From the NCBI GenBank assembly GCA_034226945.1, contig CP120457.1:124001-188000 (forward strand): a stretch of DNA of 64,000 bases. The letters run 5' to 3'. The notes under the pieces are model-generated. The model worked only from the letters and a program-made list of their open reading frames with translations, did no database searches and was not told the DNA's origin. Positions 17,823 through 55,700 of this stretch are shown here, piece by piece. Every line of letters begins with the position of its first letter. The first letter of the stretch is position 1. The translations under genes were made by a program, and so were the position numbers. Source of the DNA: Picochlorum sp. SENEW3. Taxonomy: Eukaryota.

Positions 17823-18406
17823 TACATCCCCCCATGGAGTATTGCTTTTGATGGGCGCCTGCTATGCATCCCTTGCGTTGGGTACTTTAGCTCATTCGCG
17901 CCCCATCCTTGACAAGGTGAGGCCTTGCCCGACATGGAATAATTCCTATGTAAAACTGTTGCGATTTCGGTCGAACATTGGTCTATTGTATGAGTAGAGC
18001 CACCGTCTTCGACTCCGTTGCACTCACTACAATAAGATAGGGTGCGGTGTGACACGAACAGGAAGCCATACCGTGGAATAGAGTAGGATTTACGAATTGT
18101 ATTTCATAGTCAGGGTACCAGATACCTACATTTGCCCTTTTAGTACGCGTGGACACTGCGAGTCAGGGGGCAGGCTGTGAAGATAAGATAGAGGTGGCAG
18201 TACACCCCTAGAGAATGTGCTGTCTCGAATGAACATCGGCAACTATATACTTTCATTATTTCATTTATTGGGACACGCCTCGTACAGCTGAAGCGGCTCA
18301 GGCTCTGAGAAGTGAACAGATTTCATTCTTCTTTTTCTGAGTCGGAATAGTGGAAGATATTACGCTACAATTGTAGTGCAATTTTGATTTGATTTAATAG
18401 AAAGAC

Positions 18407-19918
18407 ATGTCTAGGCAAGAAGCAGGAGGGAGTGAAGGGACATTTTCGCCAGCTGGGTTGAAAGTGCTTGTTGTAGACGATGACCCCATGTGTCTCAAGG
18501 TTGTTTCTGCAATGCTGAAACGATGTAATTATGAAGTTGACACGGAATCGAATGGGCATCAGGCGTTGGATAAACTGAGGCAGATGCAGGAGAATGGGTG
18601 TCAGTTTGATCTGGTGTTGTCGGATGTGTACATGCCAGATATGGATGGGTTCAAGTTGTTGGAGAGCATTGGGTTGGAGCTCGAGGTGCCAGTCATCATG
18701 ATGTCGAGTGATAGTGACACAAATGTGGTGCTTCGAGGAGTGACGCATGGGGCAGTTGATTTTTTGATAAAACCAGTGAGGATTGAGGAGCTGAGAAATG
18801 TTTGGCAGCATGTTATTCGTCGGCGGAGTTCGCAGATGAGTCGCGGAGCTACTGCCGAGGAGTCTGGTGTTGAGCAAGATATTAACTCTCGGACGTCACA
18901 AGGAACGAAAAGGAAGGACGTGGAAGTTATTCGTGCAGAGCATGAGGGTGGATCAACGGGAAAGAAGCCTCGGGTTGTGTGGTCTGTTGAAATGCACCAG
19001 CAGTTTGTGTATGCTGTGAATACGCTTGGTATAGACAAGGCTGTTCCCAAACGAATTTTAGATTTGATGAATGTGGAAGGGCTGACGAGAGAAAATGTGG
19101 CATCTCATCTACAAAAGTATAGGTTGTACTTGAAGCGGGTTGAGGGTGTTGCAGGCAAAGGTAATGTTGCAGTGGTGAAAGGAGGTGTTCCGAGGAATGT
19201 CGATCGATTGAATGGGAAGCCCCCTCTTCAGAATAAAGTACCAAAGCAAAGCAAGTCATGTGGAACGAGCAGAGCTGAATCATCAGATGCAGAACGGAAG
19301 CTGAACACACTGCATGCCTCAGGGTCTAGCCCAAACCTTCAAGGAATCTCCTCCTCCCACTGGTCACAACCACACGGATATTATAACTTACACGGTCAAA
19401 TATATGGCAACTCGGTCAGAATGAATGCAACTGGTGCCCCACCAACGATGATGGGCTGGCAGAATCAGAATGGTGTCCCTATGGCTACACCAATTCAGTA
19501 TGCCAATGTGCCTAGCACGTCTGCGTTCTATCAGGGAAGTGGCCATATGTATCCGGCTCAGGTTCCACCAATCAACGGTCAGATGGGAGTAACGAACAAT
19601 AATAATGTGTTGCACTCAGCAATTGATAGCAGCCAGCGACCATCCTGCACTGAAGCACATGTCAATGGATCAACAAACGCGACTGGAAATGCACCTGGAT
19701 CTGACAATGAATTTGATACAGTTGTGAATAACAACACAAATGTGCATTCGAGCACAGATGATGCATCTCACAACAAGATTGCGACTGATATTCTGAGGTC
19801 TGGATCAAGTGGACTGGATGATGACGGGCTTCCAAACATTGCAGGCCTTGACAAAAATCATGACCCAGACGATGATGTCTTAGACATGTTTATCAAAGGA
19901 ATGGAAGGGGAAACTTGA
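18407..19918 (+). CDS. Type-B response regulator (receiver + GARP Myb-like domain)
   Basis: [17 protein letters not shown] (phospho-acceptor Asp), [20 protein letters not shown]...[13 protein letters not shown]. Confidence 0.95.
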
Positions 19919-28108: not shown

Positions 28109-29296
28109 CTACGAAATATTCTTTGATCTACTCTTCTTATGCCCAACGGATATGGATTCAGCGTTATCGAGAATGTCCTCAAACGCTGGTGGTCTCTTTG
28201 CATGCCTCACATCTCTCTGTTCTGCTGCCACCTCTCCTCGACGAGGCTCATCCTCAGCCTGAGGCGATTTCAAGTCCTCCATAGGCACCCTCCATAAATC
28301 TTGCGTTGCTGGAGATTTTTCTTTTCTCTCCCATATCACCCCTCCCTCTGAATCAGGACTCCCCCCTGTAGTAACAGTAGTATACATGGTGTATGGATCC
28401 GGAGGAATACTAGCTGTTTCATTCCCGTTGCGCTGTTCTCCGGCATCTTCTTTCTTCTCGCTTTCTATCTTTCTTGGAAAAGATTCTGAGGAACGTTTTG
28501 TTGAAGCAGCAGAGCCACTCAGCGTAGATATCAACATATACATGAGAGCTGTACCCAGCACAAGACCACCTGTTCCCATGGCAATCAATGCAACATTTTT
28601 GGAATCTACATTCTGCAACAAGGCTGAAACCCCACCACCTTCTTCAACTCTATCAACACGCCGATTAGTAGCTAGGCCATCCTCTCGCTCTCCCAACAAT
28701 GCGGCAGTTTCATCCTCCTCTTCACCACCACCGCCACGAACAATCTCAGAAGAAGCAGGAGGAGATGCCCCTGCATCCCTGCTCTCCACCACAACCATGT
28801 TACTCTTCTTTTCTTCTATATTGCTATTATTGCTGCTCCGTTGAACATCATCATCTTTATTAGTAGTAGTAGAATCATTATTCCCCACCAACCCCTGAGG
28901 AAACTCCTTCAACCCAACACCTTGCTGCTCAAACAACTTTGCCACATCCTCATCAGACATGGTCGACAGCATATCCCTATATCGCTCCACAAGCATCTTC
29001 TCAGCAACCCATCGAGGTATCGGAACAGTCCTCTCCTGCTGACCAATAGACTGGATGACCAACATGTGTCCATCCAGCCATGCACCATGTGGTTCTTGTA
29101 TTCCATGAAATGCTCCTATTCGACGCCTACAGACTATGAAAGATCCACGTCGACACCATGGTGCTCTCACATTATGAAGGATGTACGAAGAAGAAGGCTC
29201 TAGAGTTCTTGCAGAAGAATTGCGTCCATGCCGAAGAGAACTTGTGACTGATACCCTATACTGCATCCGTATCGAATGCAATGCTTTTATTTCCAT
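28109..29296 (-). CDS. Hypothetical protein with transit-peptide-like N-terminus and one transmembrane segment
   Basis: 395-aa intronless ORF; hydrophobic VALIAMGTGGLVLGTALMYMLISTL; no family recognised. Confidence 0.6.
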   Translation of the reverse strand: MEIKALHSIRMQYRVSVTSSLRHGRNSSARTLEPSSSYILHNVRAPWCRRGSFIVCRRRIGAFHGIQEPHGAWLDGHMLVIQSIGQQERTVPIPRWVAEKMLVERYRDMLSTMSDEDVAKLFEQQGVGLKEFPQGLVGNNDSTTTNKDDDVQRSSNNSNIEEKKSNMVVVESRDAGASPPASSEIVRGGGGEEEDETAALLGEREDGLATNRRVDRVEEGGGVSALLQNVDSKNVALIAMGTGGLVLGTALMYMLISTLSGSAASTKRSSESFPRKIESEKKEDAGEQRNGNETASIPPDPYTMYTTVTTGGSPDSEGGVIWERKEKSPATQDLWRVPMEDLKSPQAEDEPRRGEVAAEQRDVRHAKRPPAFEDILDNAESISVGHKKSRSKNIS

Positions 29297-29404
29297 TTAA
29301 AAAGTACACAATGGTGGTACACGCGTGTGCGTAGGTCTCAGAGAAGGAAAGAAGCACCCTATTTTCCAACAATCGAGGCAAGGCTGTCTTAAAAAATTCT
29401 CCCG

Positions 29405-29486
29405 TATCGCGTCATGTCGCGTTATAGCCGGTCATCAAAAGAATCTATGAATGCGGCAAAAGATTCCCAAACTAGGCTATATAAAT
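29405..29486 (+). promoter_or_regulatory. GAPDH upstream region with motifs shared with the arsJ upstream region
   Basis: TATCGCGTCATG 29405-29416, GGCAAAAGATTCCC 29455-29468, TATA-like CTATATAAAT 29477-29486. Confidence 0.65.
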
Positions 29487-29524
29487 TAAACTTTTGGTTT
29501 ACGAATACCCGATAGTGATTGAAA

Positions 29525-30751
29525 ATGGCTCCTGTTCCATGTTTACTCAATGGCTTTGGTCGCATTGGTATGCCTTTTTGTTGGTGTTATTCAAGGAACG
29601 AAGGACGATTCACATTGGTGTGATTGTTCCTACTACGATGCAGGAAGACTTGCCATGCGCATTGCATACGATTCCAAGGATACATCAGGGATTCAGGTTG
29701 TGCATATTAATGATTTGGCGAGTGTGGAGAGTTCTGCATACCTGCTGCAGTATGACTCTGTCCACGGGACCTGGGAGCATGATGTCCAGGTGGATGACAA
29801 GGGTAATATTGTGATTACTGATGCTCATACCAAAGAGAAGCAGGTTATTACGTACTCGAGGCATACAAGTCCAAAGGATTTGGTTCTGTCCGAGTGCAAT
29901 GGGGCGTCCATGGTGTTGGAAGGCACTGGGGTGTTTTTGACGCGGGATGCACTCCAGCCCTATTTTGATAATGGAGCATCAAAGGTGGTTGTGACTGCTC
30001 CGGTCAAGGATGCGGCAAACCCAGTGACGAATATTGTGTATGGAGTGAACCATGCCGTGTATGATCCGGCCAAGGATTCCATCGTGACTGCTGCCTCGTG
30101 CACCACCAACTGCCTGGCTCCAGTGGTCAAAGTAATTCAGGAGAAGTTGACGATTCGTCATGGATGCATCACGACAGTGCATGATGTGACCAATACTCAG
30201 AGTATTTTAGACTGTCCGAATACGAAGAAGAGCGATCTGAGGAGAGCGAGGTCTGCATTGGTGAACCTGGCCCCGACCAGTACTGGCAGTGCCACTGCCA
30301 TTGCGCTCATTTTCCCAGAGCTCAAAGGCAAGCTGAATGGACTTGCGATCCGAGTTCCGCTCACGAATTCTAGTATTACGGATTGCGTCTTCGAGGTGGA
30401 GAAGGAGACGACGGCGGAAGAGGTGAATGCGCTGTTGAAGGAGGCAGCTGAAGGGGAGCTCAAGGGTATTCTTGGGTATGAAACCAAGCCACTCGTGTCT
30501 ACCGACTACATCAATGACCCTCGCTCAGGCATCGTTGATGCTTTAAGCACCCAAGTTATTGATAAGACATTGGTGAAAATATATGTATGGGTACGTTGGT
30601 GGCTCTCGTGTAGTAGTAGTAGTATGTTGAATTGTTGTCATGGTACCCGTGATGATGATGCGTGTCTGTCGTGCAGTATGACAATGAGTTTGGATACTCT
30701 CACCGTTTTGTTGATGTGGCCAGCATGGTTGCCGCATCCATCAAGCAGTAA
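29525..30751 (+). CDS. Glyceraldehyde-3-phosphate dehydrogenase, ArsJ-associated (bacterial gap3-like) subtype; exons 29525-29567, 29644-30590, 30677-30751
   Basis: Spliced N-terminus MAPVPCLLNGFGRIGRLAMR; subtype-like motifs IVTAASCTTNCLAPVVKVI, HDVTNTQSILD, TGSATAIALIFPELKGKLNG.A.RVPL, TDCVFEVE, PLVSTDY..DPRS; ends WYDNEFGYSHR; no transit peptide. Confidence 0.93.
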
Positions 30752-30918
30752 TTATAACTGCTCATATATATGTTTTGTTCGAGTAGAATGTAACACGCAG
30801 TATGATTATTATTACTACTATGCTCCACTGCTGTTGTACTGGCTGCTCTTGACAATAGCAGTCAAGATATCTTGACCATCGCGATGGTCAGTGCCGCACT
30901 ATGCTGCACATAGTGTCA

Positions 30919-31000
30919 TATCGCGTCATGGCAAAAGATTCCCTCGGAGAATTTGTTACTTGTGCGGCGTACTCGCCTTGTTTATATAGTCTATAAAATT
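30919..31000 (+). promoter_or_regulatory. arsJ upstream region with the same two motifs fused
   Basis: TATCGCGTCATG 30919-30930 overlapping GGCAAAAGATTCCC 30930-30943; TATA-like CTATAAAATT 30991-31000. Confidence 0.65.
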
Positions 31001-31054
31001 CTAAATAATTATTTTATTGGTATTTGGGTGTATTGTGTCCGCGCATTTGCAAGT

Positions 31055-32811
31055 ATGGAGGGTCGAACTGACGCGGATGGTAAAGTCGGGGAAGAGGCTG
31101 CGTCTCAAGAGGTGATGGATCCATCAGTGGCTGAACTGGACACTGCCATGACGACTGCGAGCAATGGCGATGCAACGATTGGGGCAAAGCCATCTCGAGG
31201 CTTTGGGCATTATAAAAGGGCGATGAAAGAAAAGTATGGGGCACTGTACCCGTTTGCCATTATATCCATCACCTATCTGTTGTTTACTGTGACTGATGGG
31301 GCTGTGAGGATGATTGTGCTCTTGCACGCATATAATAAAGGATTTACTGCCATGGATGTGGCTATTATGTTTAGTTTCTACGAGTTTGCTGGTGTTGTGA
31401 CCAACTTAGTTGCTGGAATGTTGGGGGCGCGGTGGGGAATCAAGACAACATTGTTGACTGGATTGACGGTTCAGTTGGTTGCCTTTGGTATGCTGTTTGG
31501 ATGGCAGAACGACTGGTCAACAGTGGCGGCCATCGTCTATGTTACCGTGTCTCAGACGATGAGTGGTGTCGCAAAGGATTTGACGAAATTGGGGGGCAAG
31601 ACGGTGACCAAACTAGTTACTCCTGAAGGAAAGAACTCATCCTTGTTCAAACTTGTGTCTTTCATCACGGGGTGGAAGAACTCTCTCAAGGGTGTTGGAT
31701 ATTTTCTCGGTGCAGCATTAGTGAGTGTGAATTACTATCTTGCATTGGGTGTATTATGCGGGTTTATCCTCGCCGCCTACCCATTCGCTCTATTTGGTCT
31801 GTCGAATGAGCTTGGCAGAGCACGAAAGGAAAATGTCAAATTCTCTCAGCTGTTCAAGTACGTTGTTGCTGTTTTTTTCTTTTTCTCCGTGGTATCTATG
31901 TCTATGGAAAGATCATGAGTATTTATGTATATATTACGATACCTTTATGTTGCAGGAATAAGTATAACATCAACATTTTGTCCTTGTCTCGAGTGTTTTT
32001 ATTTGGGTCACGAGATTTGTGGTTTGAAGTTCCACTTCCATTCTTTTTGAGAAATCCCGAGTCGGGAATCGGATGGAGTAGAACACTAACAGGAGCTTTT
32101 CTGGCAATATTCATCATCGTGTATGGCCAGATGCAAAGTTGGACACCCCAACTTGCCCTCAAGCCCCTCAGGCAGTCACCCCCAGACAAGTATGCTGCCA
32201 TTTGGTGGTGTGCCTCCTTGTCTGTGCCGACCGCCATTCTCGGAGGATTACTTTTAGGAAGCGATGTATTTGGTCCAAATGCAAGCTCTGGGTCAGCAAT
32301 ATCAGCATTGACCGTACTCCTGTATTCATTCTGCATCTTTTTTGCCATTAATTCTGCCATCCATTCATACTTGATTGTCCGGTATGCTGATGGAGACAAA
32401 GTCGCCATGCAAGTTGGTGTATACTACGCATCGAATGCGCTTGGAAGATTATTAGGAACCTTATTCTCTGGAGTTTTATACACATATGTGGGAAGCACTG
32501 TTGTGGATGGCTTTGGGGCATGTGTCATTGCATCATGCCTGGTGTCCTTGGTGTCCACATTTATCGATAACTTTTTGCGAGAAGATCAGGTAGGAGCCAC
32601 ATTCTTCGGACCATTGAACAGATGCTTCCCTTGCTGGATTCCAGCACCACAAGCTGTGCTGGATATTGAGGCAAAGGGAGTAGATGATTCAGCACAGCAG
32701 ACTGAAGGAATGACACCATGTGACAAGACCATGGATGGAGAGCAATCGATAGAAAACGTCAACGGGGCTGTAGATGCACCATCAGAGATGGCACCGCCGT
32801 CAAAGTGCTAG
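31055..32811 (+). CDS. arsJ: ArsJ-family organoarsenical efflux MFS transporter (intron 31858-31955)
   Basis: FTVTDGAVRM.VLL, FSFYEFAGVVTNL.AG.LGAR, SGVAKDLTK, TGWKNSLKGVGYFLG, INILSLSRVFLFGSRDLWF.V.LP.FL, FAINSAIHSYLIV.YA.GDKVA..VG.YY..NA.GRL.GT. Confidence 0.9.
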
Positions 32812-33185
32812 CACTTTAGTATTTACACGTATATTTCATAGCTGATGATGATGATGATACGTACCTGTCAGTATGAATTTCAAGTAGCTCTCGGAAACCA
32901 CCGGTATCTGTCTGGTATGATTTCTGTATCCAAGAAGAATAGTTCGAGAATAAGCATCATCACAAAATAGAAGAGAGACGTGCACAGATTGAGACGAGAG
33001 AAGAGAGAGCGCATAGCAGCAATACATGAATGAATGGAGAAGCAGCACAACAAGAAGTAAAAGGTCAAGAGCAATATATACATTGCATACCCACTTTCAA
33101 TGCGAATTGGCTGTTTCATTCGTTATTATTCTGCTCCTGGTACCTCAACTGCAATGTTACACAAAGAACACAATACCAACACTCT

Positions 33186-34667
33186 CTACATCTCTGGTGG
33201 CTTTTCCCACTGGGTGACCCCAGTCACAGTATTATAGTAATATGGACGATTTTGATCATCTCTGTATTCTATCCATTGTCCTCCTGCAGCTGGTGCTGCC
33301 ATATTTGGGTCCTGGGCAGCTTGCTGCTGATAGTCATAGCCTCCTGCTGCTGGTGCAGCTCCAGCACCATAGTCTCCATATCCACCATACCCACCGTATC
33401 CTCCACCTCCATATCCCGATCCGTACTGCCCACCATATCCACCGTACCCGCCATACCCACCATACTGCTGCTGCTGTCCTCCATACCCCCCACCACTATA
33501 TGGGTTGGGAGCAAATGGATCCCCACCATTCATAATCTCTGATATCAAAGATTTAGCCTGATCAACAGTCGACTGCTGCCCTGAAATTGATATTTTGCAG
33601 GGGTCATCACTCTGATCAATCTGAACAGTGGCACCAGACACCTTTTGAATATTCTTGATCGTCTCCCCTCCCCTGCCAATAATCCTTCCAATCACCATTT
33701 TCGGAGCAAGCACTAAATCCGTTTCTCCAATCCCATATTTTTGACACACACGCAGAATCACAGACTGCGCCGACCCTGGCTCTCCATGAATCAATTCATT
33801 CACCATCAACTCGGCCCTCTCAACTGCCTCTGGCTTCCCCGTGATGATCACCTGCCTCGGTACTTCGGGAGGAAAATCTTGATTCACAGAAATACGAGCA
33901 TCACTCGCAGTCTGCAACGCTCTAATCGTCTCCCCACCACGCCCAATAATCTTTCCCACCAAACTTGGCGGACACTCCACAGTCTTGGAAGAATCCTGAG
34001 AATCAGTCGTGAGAATCGCCGCCTTTGCCCGAGCAACATTTTCCTGAGTCTTTCCGGTAATAGTTATCTTCCTTTCAGTACCCTGACTCGCATGATCGAT
34101 CTGAATATGGGTATCCGTCGACTGCTGCATTTGGCGAATCGTCTCACCTCCACGCCCAATCAACCTCCCTACCAGCGCTGAAGGCACCATGAGTGTCTCT
34201 GTAATTCCATCCTGTGTATCATGGTATTGCGCATCGTCTGGAACCCTTTTGCTGTCTGGCTCGTCAAAAGCATCACCGTCTCGGGGCCGCTTGTTCGTTT
34301 GGTCCGCATGCTCAGCTCCAGAACTAATCGGATATTCCTGTTGCTGATGTTTATTCATCAGTTTGGCTGCCACAGCAGCTGCTGCAGCCGCAGCATCTGC
34401 CATTTGTTGAGCCTTGTCTTCTTCAGCAGGTGGCTGTTGCTTTTCTTCTGCCTCCTCTTCTTTTGCATCGTCTTCTCCCTGTCCGGTCTTGCCCTCATTC
34501 TGTTCTTCTTCTTGTTGTTGAACGTCTTCTTTGGTCTCGTCGCCAGTACGCTCCTCCTTCTCCTCCTCCTCTTGCTGCTGCTGTTCTCCCTCCACCTCCT
34601 GCGCTGTCACCTCCTCCTCCTCCGGCTCCTGCTTTTTCCCCGTCCTCTTACGTCGCGTTGCTACCAT
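33186..34667 (-). CDS. KH-domain RNA-binding protein (three KH domains, GY-rich region, C-terminal WW domain; FUBP/KSRP-like)
   Basis: Three G.IIGRGGETI loops; WIEYRDDQNRPYYYNTVTGVTQWEKP. Confidence 0.92.
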   Translation of the reverse strand: MVATRRKRTGKKQEPEEEEVTAQEVEGEQQQQEEEEKEERTGDETKEDVQQQEEEQNEGKTGQGEDDAKEEEAEEKQQPPAEEDKAQQMADAAAAAAAVAAKLMNKHQQQEYPISSGAEHADQTNKRPRDGDAFDEPDSKRVPDDAQYHDTQDGITETLMVPSALVGRLIGRGGETIRQMQQSTDTHIQIDHASQGTERKITITGKTQENVARAKAAILTTDSQDSSKTVECPPSLVGKIIGRGGETIRALQTASDARISVNQDFPPEVPRQVIITGKPEAVERAELMVNELIHGEPGSAQSVILRVCQKYGIGETDLVLAPKMVIGRIIGRGGETIKNIQKVSGATVQIDQSDDPCKISISGQQSTVDQAKSLISEIMNGGDPFAPNPYSGGGYGGQQQQYGGYGGYGGYGGQYGSGYGGGGYGGYGGYGDYGAGAAPAAGGYDYQQQAAQDPNMAAPAAGGQWIEYRDDQNRPYYYNTVTGVTQWEKPPEM

Positions 34668-52700: not shown

Positions 52701-55700
52701 GAAGCATGGCAAAGCTGTAGCTATGATGAAGGCTTTGGAGGGAATTGAAGCTAAACGCCTCGATTCTATGGAATGGAACATGTTCTGGGGAGAGGAAGGC
52801 GCTCTTAACTTTTTGTTTGCTGAATCTGAAGAGACTGTTGCTAGAACCAATGTCAGAAAAGTAGCACTGCACTTGCACATGATGCTGAATTCAAGTGCGA
52901 AGGGCTCCCAGCCAAGAGGAGAAGAGGCTGTTCGCATATTGTCATTCTTCATGGGCTCGATGAAGAATCCCACTTTACAAAGCCCTCCAAGCTTGGATGA
53001 AATGCTCTCATGGACTGTTCTCACCCCACATTATCATGAAGACGTTCTGTATGCACTGAATAGGAAGGAAGTCGCCGCATACTTTGGAATGCAAGGATCA
53101 GACGTATCGAAAGTCTCTGACCTTGTGAACCCAAATGATGACGGTGTAACGGTTATGGCATGGCTGAGGTCCAATTATTCCCATGATTGGGACAACATGT
53201 TGGAAAGACTCAAGCCTGCACTCACCAAAGCAAATATCGATGCCAAATCTGTTCGAGAAGCAGATTTTGATGAAGGAGCCCCTCTTGCTGCGCACAGAAT
53301 GGAGTTGCTGCAGTGGGCATCATACAGAGGACAGCACTTGTCGAGAACAGTTCGAGGTATGATGGCATATGAGAAGGCTTTGAGACTCCTCGCAAAGATT
53401 GAAAACCCAAACCCAGGAGTTAGTGCATTGAGATATAATTCATCCATAGATGATTTGGTGCGCTCCAAATTCTCATACGTGGTGGCGTCTCAGAATTATG
53501 GTAATGCAAGGAAATCTGGTAAACCAGAACAAAGATGGCTTGCCAGGGGTGTGGAGATGTTGCTTCACCAGCATCCTGGACTTCGCGTTGCGTTTTTGGA
53601 CGATCAGAAAACCGCCAGTGCAACAATACAATATTCTGTGCTCATAAGAGCGCGCCATGGAACTCCAATCAATGATCCGCAGTGCACTGAAGAGTTGTAC
53701 AGGATTCGATTGCCAGTGAATAGGCTGCAATCATCTGAATCCCAAAAGGGGATCATCCTTGGGGAAGGTAAGCCTGAAAATCAGAATGCATCGATCATTT
53801 ATTGTTTTGGAGAAGCCATTCAGGCCATCGACATGAACCAGGATAATTATCTGTTTGAAGCACTGAAAATGAGAAATCTCATTGACGAATTCAACCCCCC
53901 AAGATATACAGATGATACATGGAAAACTGCAATAGGACCTTATGCACGGAGGAACTGCGGTCCTGATAAAGTTGCAATCAAGACAAAAGCAGAGGTGACA
54001 AAACTCATTCAAAACGGACATGCCCCCAGCTTGCAGATGGAGGATGTCACCACAGATATTGTTGCTTACGAAAGACCATGGCCTGATATGAGATCCATGC
54101 CAGTCACCTTGATTGGTTTCCGTGAATGGATCTTCTCTCAAGACTCCGGAGCGTTGGCTTCATTTGCAGCTGCCACTGAGTTCACATTCGGCTCAATGGT
54201 TCAAAGGATCATGACATGGCCAGGAGGGGTGAGGTTCCATTATGGTCACCCAGATCTCTGGAATAAATTATTTGTGATGACCAGGGGTGGCGTTTCCAAG
54301 GCCACGAGAGGATTCCACATCAGCGAGGACGTATTCGCCGGGTACAATCATGTACTCCGTGGGGGAAAAGTCAAGTTTAAGGAGTACATCTCCTGCGGAA
54401 AAGGTCGTGATATGGGCTTCGACTCAATCAATTCGTTCGAGTCCAAAGTTTCTGGGGGTAACGGAGAACAAGTCATGTCTAGAGATGTGTATCGCTTGGG
54501 GACTCATTTTGATTTCTTCAGGCTGCTGGCATTCTACCACTCTGGTCCAGGATTCTTTATCAATTCCTATCTCGTGATGCTGTCAGTATATGCAAATATC
54601 TGGATGCTGACTCTTCTTGCGTTGACAAATAACCAGGAACTCGCGGATCCCAATGATCCAACGCAAGTGATTTCTACATTAACTGGGCAGTCTACATCAG
54701 TTGCCGTGCAGCAGCTTGTGCAAATTGGAATGTTTTCCATCGTGACATATGCCATCGAACTTCTCCTTGAATATGGGCTTATACACACGCTAGCGACACT
54801 TATTCTTCAGATCATCCAAGGCTCGATTGCATTTTTCGTTTTCAGAACCAGGACAACGGCAAAATATTTCCTGAAGGATGTGCAGTATGGTGGTGCACAA
54901 TATGTTGCAACTGGCAGAGGTTACCAGCTCCACCACAATTCATTCGTAAGGGTGTATTCTACATATTCTAGAACACACCTTTATTACGCTGCAGAGTTGC
55001 TGCTGCTTTTGATTTTGCTTCCCTTACTGGGATGGAATCAGTATGCTGCAACAACATGGTCAACATGGTTGGTGTGCGTATCACTGTTCTGGGCACCATT
55101 CTGGTTCAATCCAAGCGCATTCAGGCTTCAAAACACGTCTGATGATTTTGAATCATGGCAACTGTGGATGAGAGATGTGGTTGATACAGATATAAAAAAG
55201 ACATGGTCTGCATGGAACAAGGAAGAATTAGCAAAGCATCGAAATGATCGTCAAGAGCAATCAAACCCGTTAGCAACGTCCATCAGAGGAATTTTGGGTG
55301 CCCTGCCTACAGCCGTATTGACCTTGGGGTCGATCACTGGTCTTGAAAACACAACATGGAACAAGTGGGCCATTTTCGGTGTCATTACTGGAGTATTTTG
55401 GTTTGTGGTCCTTGGTCTTGGCCTCACACATAGAATCCTCATTACAAGAACACACTATCGAATTTGGAGACTTTTCCGAACCTTGGCTGTCATCTGCCTC
55501 CTTGCTTTTTTCATTTGCGCCATTATCTTTGTGCCATCTGTTGGAGGTGGCGTTGGGCTAAAAAACTTTGTGTTGATTGTGTTTGCAAACTTCTCGGTAC
55601 GGTGCTTTTTCTTTTTGCTCGATCCATATTTCATAACACCAACAATATATATCTAACCTGAACGTTGTTTATATCTACAGGCTGCCGCTGTGGTGACTCA

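Follow-up and report, generated by a model that had tools for sequence, protein, structure and literature searches.

Two protein-coding genes lie in tandem on the forward strand in a stretch of 64,000 nucleotides from the green alga Picochlorum sp. SENEW3 (contig CP120457.1, positions 124,001 to 188,000), to which we refer as the window. The first gene, GAPDH3, which codes for a glyceraldehyde-3-phosphate dehydrogenase (GAPDH), is interrupted by two introns; the second codes for an ArsJ-like permease of the major facilitator superfamily (MFS), is interrupted by one intron and starts 303 bp after the GAPDH3 stop codon (Table 1). The intron numbers, the spacer and all coordinates agree with those given in a preliminary description of this DNA. 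When the exons were joined by coordinates, the spliced coding sequences translated into proteins of 354 amino acids for GAPDH3 and 552 amino acids for the MFS protein, with no internal stop codon in either. The GAPDH3 model is identical in 354/354 residues to the public protein P0388, which is named 'Glyceraldehyde-3-phosphate dehydrogenase 3' of Picochlorum sp. SENEW3, and two proteins of Picochlorum sp. BPE23 differ from it by 2-3 residues. Exon 2 of GAPDH3 matches the Pfam families Gp_dh_N and Gp_dh_C and could be aligned to the solved structure 1gd1. The dinucleotide-binding motif NGFGRIGR begins at residue 9, too close to the N terminus for a transit peptide to precede it, in agreement with the preliminary description, which had noted its absence.

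Table 1. Positions in the window of the exons, introns and promoter elements of the GAPDH3-ArsJ gene pair
Feature	Position	Strand	Remarks
Promoter motif m2 TATCGCGTCATG, GAPDH3 copy	29405..29416	+	Exact 12-mer, repeated at 30919-30930
Promoter motif m1 GGCAAAAGATTCCC, GAPDH3 copy	29455..29468	+	Exact 14-mer, repeated at 30930-30943
GAPDH3 exon 1	29525..29567	+	Start codon, 14 codons plus 1 base; from sequence reading and identity to P0388
GAPDH3 intron 1	29568..29643	+	76 nt, GT..AG; same interruption in L002 and L005
GAPDH3 exon 2	29644..30590	+	315 complete codons, with the catalytic motifs SCTTNC and TVH; NF033735 424.4 bits
GAPDH3 intron 2	30591..30676	+	86 nt, GT..AG; skipped in X3 contig, retained in X1
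GAPDH3 exon 3	30677..30751	+	24 codons plus TAA
Spacer with ArsJ promoter	30752..31054	.	303 bp, GAPDH stop to MFS start
Contiguous 25-nt element (m2 plus m1, one-base overlap)	30919..30943	+	112 nt before ArsJ start codon
ArsJ-like MFS exon 1	31055..31857	+	NF033734 194.3 bits; Pfam MFS_1; first transporter half
ArsJ intron	31858..31955	+	98 nt, GT..AG; skipped in X3, retained in X1/X2
ArsJ-like MFS exon 2	31956..32811	+	NF033734 167.2 bits; second transporter half, TAG; translation P0001

Splicing was followed in contigs of three sequencing runs, i.e. X3, an RNA-type run (labelled 'RNA?') of a close relative, and X1 and X2, which are probably DNA runs. The X3 contigs omit exactly the 86 nt of GAPDH3 intron 2 and the 98 nt of the MFS intron (junction 31857/31956), both bounded by GT..AG, and the X1/X2 contigs are unspliced at both sites. 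GAPDH3 intron 1 lies outside the X3 cover; it is based on the identity to P0388, on homology of the N terminus to P0006, and on the same position of the interruption in two related algal metagenome contigs, L002 and L005. Among the X3 contigs listed, none spans the 303-bp spacer, and the contigs are blind to transcript ends and levels; the X3 gaps at the spacer and intron 1 therefore carry no information on transcript ends. Two database proteins, P0002 and P0003, whose identity to the window is 98% and 96%, respectively, were rejected as gene models because they are unspliced, prokaryote-style calls that cross intron 2. Similarly, run X8, an oligo-dT RNA-Seq run of a sediment metagenome, was set aside as uninformative for this organism because its matches are limited to conserved GAPDH stretches with unlike flanks.

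The window GAPDH3 (P0388) scored 478.3 bits on the NCBIfam model NF033735 ('ArsJ-associated GAPDH'), which has a curated cut-off of 450 bits, and the runner-up models were PRK08955 (440.6 bits) and TIGR01534 (383.6 bits). NF033735 was also the best NCBIfam model for exon 2 alone (424.4 bits), and its cut-off is passed by the orthologues from Nannochloris desiccata (476.4 bits) and Chlamydomonas reinhardtii (458.7 bits). Compared with solved structures, exon 2 matched best the Bacillus-type enzyme 1gd1 (267 bits); plastid GapA scored 231 bits and cytosolic GapC1 212 bits. By comparison, algal GAPDH3 homologues scored 380-669 bits, and C. reinhardtii GAP2 (P0095) scored 396 bits.

A GAPDH tree of 71 rows was calculated by a quick IQ-TREE search, with the SH-like approximate likelihood ratio test (SH-aLRT) as the only measure of support. 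The bacterial rows comprised 40 arsJ-adjacent genes (every second usable gene and seven that were picked in addition, less two that were truncated) and all 17 GAPDH copies from five of the same bacterial genomes. In this tree, 59 rows formed a clade with an SH-aLRT value of 100 and a stem of 0.84, and this clade was made up of the 40 bacterial arsJ-adjacent genes, 5 identical copies of these from the whole genomes, 13 algal GAPDH3 proteins and the window GAPDH3. The 12 other GAPDH copies of the five bacterial genomes fell outside this clade. The copies outside it include three cyanobacterial ones (L161, L162 and L168) with the N-terminal context RNFxRCW. We take these three to be of the Gap2 type and used them as proxies for GapA/B. 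Within the clade, the 13 algal rows and the window formed a single group (support 96) in which the window is the sister of N. desiccata (support 100).

The three motifs that the preliminary description had read as marks of the ArsJ-associated subtype are all present in the window GAPDH3. By column counts, the residues HDxTNTQ, TGSATAI…IFPEL and TDCVFEV are typical of the arsJ-adjacent GAPDHs of bacteria (40) and of the 13 algal ones, and other residues stand there in the 12 other bacterial copies. Moreover, the alignment to 1gd1 demonstrated that the context of the catalytic Cys and His is retained. In total, the score above the NF033735 cut-off and the fully supported clade confirm that the enzyme is of the ArsJ-associated subtype; judged by the bit scores for solved structures and by the cyanobacterial proxies, its closest similarity is neither to GapA/B nor to GapC.

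For the MFS protein, NF033734 (ArsJ) was the sole NCBIfam family matched by either exon at E up to 0.001, and the two exons cover positions 3-200 and 205-388 of the 392 positions of this model. In a tree of 68 ArsJ rows, which has no outgroup and is unrooted, 25 algal rows were separated from 43 bacterial rows with a support of 100. Besides the window, the algal rows represent green algae, one haptophyte and one diatom, and they include C. reinhardtii ARSJ (P0138), which we assume from the organism name to be the product of Cre07.g354150. The window ArsJ is the sister of P0130 from Picochlorum renovo (support 99). Its ortholog in L002 is intronless and 86% identical to it, and its identity to bacterial ArsJ is 35-44%. 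ArsJ-like MFS proteins are also annotated in the hemichordates Saccoglossus kowalevskii, Ptychodera flava and Glandiceps talaboti (P0447, P0245 and P0453), with 47-50% identity to exon 2 of the window ArsJ; these proteins suggest either that the eukaryotic ArsJ clade extends into animals or that algal contaminants are present in the animal data.

The preliminary description had pointed out that the order gapdh then arsJ is that of Pseudomonas-type ars operons. Among 80 bacterial arsJ loci, a gapdh gene is located directly upstream of arsJ on the same strand in 73, confirming this order. A script labelled 69 of these 73 loci as tandem and four as 'convergent', the latter only because the ends of the high-scoring segment pairs (HSP) overlap. 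The rest of the sample consists of four loci without an upstream flank and three Methylophaga loci that have a flank but no GAPDH gene.

Altogether, we consider it highly likely that the locus is the nuclear GAPDH3-ARSJ pair by which a green alga of the Picochlorum type (Trebouxiophyceae) detoxifies arsenate and that it descends from bacterial gapdh-arsJ. In the mechanism that we propose, a cytosolic GAPDH of bacterial type would use arsenate in place of phosphate and convert glyceraldehyde-3-phosphate to 1-arseno-3-phosphoglycerate, and the adjoining ArsJ-type MFS permease would export this unstable product, so that As(V) would be removed from the cell. The biochemical mechanism is that of Chen et al. 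2016, taken here from its account in PMC7826186. Both genes would come from a bacterial gapdh-arsJ unit and would now be separate eukaryotic genes with their own TATA-containing promoters and spliceosomal introns; that the two genes arrived together is what we infer. A known system for comparison is the gapdh-arsJ pair of the Pseudomonas aeruginosa ars operon, with which the window pair shares order, strand and GAPDH clade; the ArsJ profile is spanned end to end. Unlike the bacterial pair, the window contains two monocistronic-looking genes, 303 bp apart, with introns and with a TATA-like promoter each, and its ArsJ is divergent in sequence, scores below the bacterial cut-off and carries terminal extensions.

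Several observations weigh against this interpretation. First, the window ArsJ halves score 194.3 + 167.2 bits on NF033734, and the ArsJ orthologues of L002 (380.3 bits), C. reinhardtii (380.0 bits) and O. tauri (391.1 bits) remain below the cut-off of 400 bits; Pseudomonas ArsJ scores 620.2 bits. In addition, the window ArsJ has an acidic N-terminal extension of ~66 amino acids and a C-terminal tail of ~80 amino acids, both of which are absent from bacteria. Because the algal scores are under the cut-off, we file these proteins as an algal sister group of bacterial ArsJ and not as the bacterial equivalog. The ArsJ identity proposed in the preliminary description therefore stands with respect to the sole family, the full profile and the place in the algal ARSJ clade, and does not extend to the bacterial cut-off. 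Second, the GAPDH tree separates the arsJ-adjacent clade from cyanobacterial and bacterial paralogues, and these, together with the scores for solved structures, serve as proxies for the eukaryotic GapC and GapA/B rows that the tree does not contain; the proposed grouping apart from the ordinary enzymes is thus supported for the cyanobacterial and bacterial copies and, by proxy, for eukaryotic GapC and GapA/B. Third, the trees single out no bacterial donor, and the ArsJ tree has no root. Fourth, the tandem order is often lost in relatives, which have divergent, convergent or PGK-interposed arrangements. Finally, the enzymatic, transport and arsenate-response roles in this alga are carried over from known systems. 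Thus, of the earlier proposal that a horizontally acquired operon was made eukaryotic, the bacterial-type families and the bacterial order are supported; the conversion of the operon is something we infer, and the gene order varies in algae.

The algal gene order was examined in 80 metagenome loci found with an ArsJ exon; this sample was not de-replicated and contains the same species many times. GAPDH3 is located upstream of ArsJ on the same strand in 20/80 loci, upstream and divergent in 12/80 loci, including the close relatives L003-L005, and downstream and convergent in 2/80 loci (L007 and L028). It was not seen within the flanks of 46/80 loci, several of which have short flanks. In the 20 same-strand loci, GAPDH3 and ArsJ are directly adjacent in L002 alone; in the other 19, they are separated by a PGK-like gene of opposite orientation. 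In the closest relatives, GAPDH3 is inverted (L003-L005) or relocated beyond the KH/WW gene (L007) and is still clustered with ArsJ. With respect to synteny, the local order of the window is shared with L002 and L005, with GAPDH3 itself inverted in L005.

Consecutive locus tags suggest, by numbering only, that GAPDH3 and ArsJ are adjacent in Micractinium tetrahymenae (007396/007395), Ulva mutabilis (UM036_0107/0108), Mesostigma viride (Mv16691/Mv16690) and Picochlorum renovo (28961/28962). By the same type of inference, the two genes look far apart in N. desiccata (g03529 and g07519).

These differences bear on the possibility that the function is as proposed but that the two genes were acquired separately, or parted after transfer, and were clustered by selection, so that the order in the window would be secondary. 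The varied arrangements over the 80 algal loci, the inverted or moved GAPDH3 in the closest relatives and the distant locus tags in N. desiccata are in line with such a history. Against it, the algae form a single clade in each tree, which joins the bacterial sequences close to where their diversity begins, and a same-strand GAPDH gene before ArsJ occurs in two distant green lineages, one Picochlorum-like and one Ostreococcus-like; moreover, locus tags suggest adjacency in Micractinium, Ulva and Mesostigma, and joint acquisition is favoured in PMC7826186. We consider separate acquisition unlikely.

A PGK-like gene is present in 31/80 algal loci, and Pfam PF00162 was matched in L016, L025 and L044. 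Its presence in the cluster would fit a pair that serves carbon or phosphate metabolism, e.g. by export of a phosphorylated glycolytic intermediate, with arsenate as a side activity. Automated annotation likewise gives glycolysis plus a transporter, which PMC7826186 calls the naive hypothesis, and the GAPDH retains all catalytic residues for normal chemistry. However, its GAPDH clade is the one found directly before arsJ in 73/80 bacterial loci, mutation of arsJ or of pgk3 makes C. reinhardtii sensitive to arsenate according to the same source, and the 64-kb window has no PGK-like gene (best tblastn E 0.83). We therefore regard a primarily metabolic role as improbable and retain arsenate detoxification as the likely function of the pair.

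The locus is a resident nuclear locus and not contamination. Thirty large open reading frames (ORF) of the window were scanned against Pfam, and the 24 with a family match are ordinary eukaryotic or green-algal genes. The products of these genes include eIF5, one of the NatA subunits, an ATP synthase gamma-family protein, a Nop56/58-type protein, a KH/WW protein, Nop14, callose synthase, a PAP-fibrillin protein and a Myb-domain response regulator; the ATP synthase gamma-family gene is presumably of the plastid type. Among the 30 ORF scanned, no other ars gene was seen. On the L002 and L005 metagenome contigs, the order Nop, family-less membrane protein, GAPDH3, ArsJ and KH/WW is repeated; L002 continues downstream with DUF7811 and an LRR protein, and the far end of L005 carries an ORF for Nop14. 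The fact that the best family models of both proteins are of bacterial type is what a bacterial contaminant or an assembly chimera would also produce. This explanation is incompatible with three GT..AG introns, two of which are spliced in RNA-type contigs, with a G+C content of 0.46 at the gene pair in a window that has 0.42-0.50 per 2 kb, with the eukaryotic flanks (Nop56/58-like, KH/WW, Nop14, callose synthase and ATP synthase gamma-family), with the same synteny on the independent contigs L002 and L005, and with nearest homologues that are all algal; we regard it as already refuted. The RNA-confirmed introns, the eukaryotic neighbours and the synteny with related algal contigs thus uphold the argument against contamination that had been made in the preliminary description.

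The gene pair has been described before. In green algae, an 'ArsJ-type' neighbourhood ArsJ-GAPDH3(-PGK-like) was reported in PMC7826186 (Foflonker & Blaby-Haas, Mol Biol Evol 2020/21). There, GAPDH3 is named as distinct from GAPC/Cp and GAPA/B, joint acquisition from bacteria is proposed, and insertion mutants of C. reinhardtii in arsJ (Cre07.g354150) and pgk3 are described as arsenate-sensitive. Picochlorum SENEW3 is among the nine chlorophytes studied, and a supplementary table lists 000004F_consensus.g935 (GAPDH3) and g936 (ArsJ) of this alga as neighbours. The published neighbourhood has the same families, adjacency and inferred bacterial origin as the window and is the same locus or a near-identical one; the absence of an adjacent PGK-like gene from the window agrees with the statement in PMC7826186 that PGK2 is not proximal in Trebouxiophyceae. 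PMC9812998 cites the algal cluster and adds ArsJ in Cyanidiales. Among the matches listed for Picochlorum and arsenate in the literature, PMC7826186 is, by title, the only one that concerns the pair. Thus, the pair is already known for the genus Picochlorum and probably for this very genome; the preliminary description had cautioned that it might not be entirely new, as such pairs had been noted in algae. Because the pair is in print for green algae and for Picochlorum SENEW3, our main conclusion is not new, and because the published account includes evidence from Chlamydomonas mutants, the present analysis mainly confirms the annotation.

The locus is a clean case, already published as such, in which two bacterial genes that formed a detoxification unit became ordinary eukaryotic genes and are still clustered. 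What we add are the shared promoter words, the introns missing from a relative, the local rearrangements and the lack of a PGK-like gene in the window. Term look-ups in the available parts of PMC7826186 found no shared promoter words, intron differences between relatives or local inversions, and 'promoter' occurred there only in general statements and in the reference list.

L002 has neither intron 2 of GAPDH3 nor the intron of ArsJ, a single HSP running across each site, and GAPDH3 intron 1 is common to the window, L002 and L005. Given their absence from L002, the two missing introns are either young gains or were lost in the L002 lineage. The presence and absence of introns among such close relatives dates an instance of intron turnover in a gene acquired by transfer. 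In L001, the ArsJ match is broken into two pieces.

GAPDH3 and ArsJ each have their own TATA-like element, and the two promoters have sequence words in common. The exact 12-mer m2 and the exact 14-mer m1 precede both genes; they are separated by 38 nt before GAPDH3 and contiguous before ArsJ (Table 1). The GAPDH3 copy of m1 lies 10 nt ahead of TATATAAA at 29478-29485, TATA-like runs are present in the 303-bp spacer at 30983-30998, and in both promoters the motifs stand upstream of the TATA-like run. In the whole window, m2 has two copies at up to one mismatch, and m1 has two exact copies plus one match with two mismatches at 54858. As an empirical null, 20000 pairs of 300-nt segments were drawn at random from the window; 21 pairs had an exact match of at least 14 nt in common, and 3 had such a match together with a second of at least 12 nt.

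The element before ArsJ is kept in L001 at the same distance from the gene, with a one-base deletion, in a promoter that has otherwise diverged. Its core, AAGATTCC, recurs in promoters of relatives that are otherwise unalignable, namely the ArsJ promoter of L001, both promoters of L002, the divergent promoter that the two genes have in common in L005, where it forms a palindromic pair, and the GAPDH3 promoter of L007, where it is reversed; it is not present in the ArsJ promoters of L007 and L006. In the ArsJ promoter of L002 (L002:4970-5030), three tandem copies of the 10-nt unit CCATGTAACG lead into the AAGATTCC core. The 7-mer AGATTCC occurs in 12 copies in the window, with 7.8 expected, and is therefore not rare, so that the case for the element is built on position and conservation rather than on rarity.

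Judging from these sequence features, it is possible, and we suggest it tentatively, that a former operon lost co-transcription and that its two genes are now kept together as a regulon by a promoter element that was duplicated, which would be a candidate site for an arsenate- or phosphate-responsive factor. The AAGATTCC core appears to resemble GARP/Myb-type sites and the 12-mer to contain a TGACG-like bZIP core. The shared words thus offer a candidate arsenate-responsive cis-element in a fast-growing, transformable alga and a candidate route to co-expression without an operon.

Two other eukaryotic arsenic systems, both cited here through PMC7826186, bear comparison with the window. In the GAPC1-OCT4 system of Pteris vittata (Cai et al. 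2019), the logic is the same in that a GAPDH arsenylates its substrate and a transporter moves the product. GAPC1 and OCT4 are non-homologous to the proteins of the window pair, and the likeness is therefore one of convergence. The product in Pteris is reportedly sequestered and not exported. The yeast ARR/ACR cluster (Bobrowicz et al. 1997) is likewise a eukaryotic arsenic-resistance cluster with separate promoters. It differs from the window in its proteins and in having no GAPDH step. The yeast proteins are an arsenate reductase, the exporter Acr3 and a bZIP regulator.

Two further ORF and one sequenced fragment were noted around the pair. At 18401-19918 (+), 10 kb upstream, an ORF combines a response-regulator receiver domain with a Myb-type DNA-binding domain; this resembles the type-B ARR/GARP architecture and is mentioned because of the apparent likeness of the promoter core to GARP-type sites. 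At 28109-29296 (-), a family-less ORF of 395 codons from stop to stop, with one hydrophobic stretch, is divergent from GAPDH3 and has with it a common 228-bp promoter region that contains the motifs. This ORF is conserved in place in L002 and L003-L005 with 35-42% identity; because its counterpart in L005 is not divergent from GAPDH3, we draw no firm link to the pair. In X3, a discrete 128-nt fragment at 29336-29463, flanked on either side by adapter sequence, lies over the GAPDH3 promoter with its 12-mer and some of its 14-mer and has a depth of 139, compared with 34 for the GAPDH3 contig. The idea of a small RNA found no support, as no Rfam match was found at E up to 1 in the region 28900-33300 and as its fold z-scores (-0.57/+0.29) were no better than those of shuffled sequences on either strand. 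The fragment may represent the 5' end of the transcript of the divergent upstream gene.

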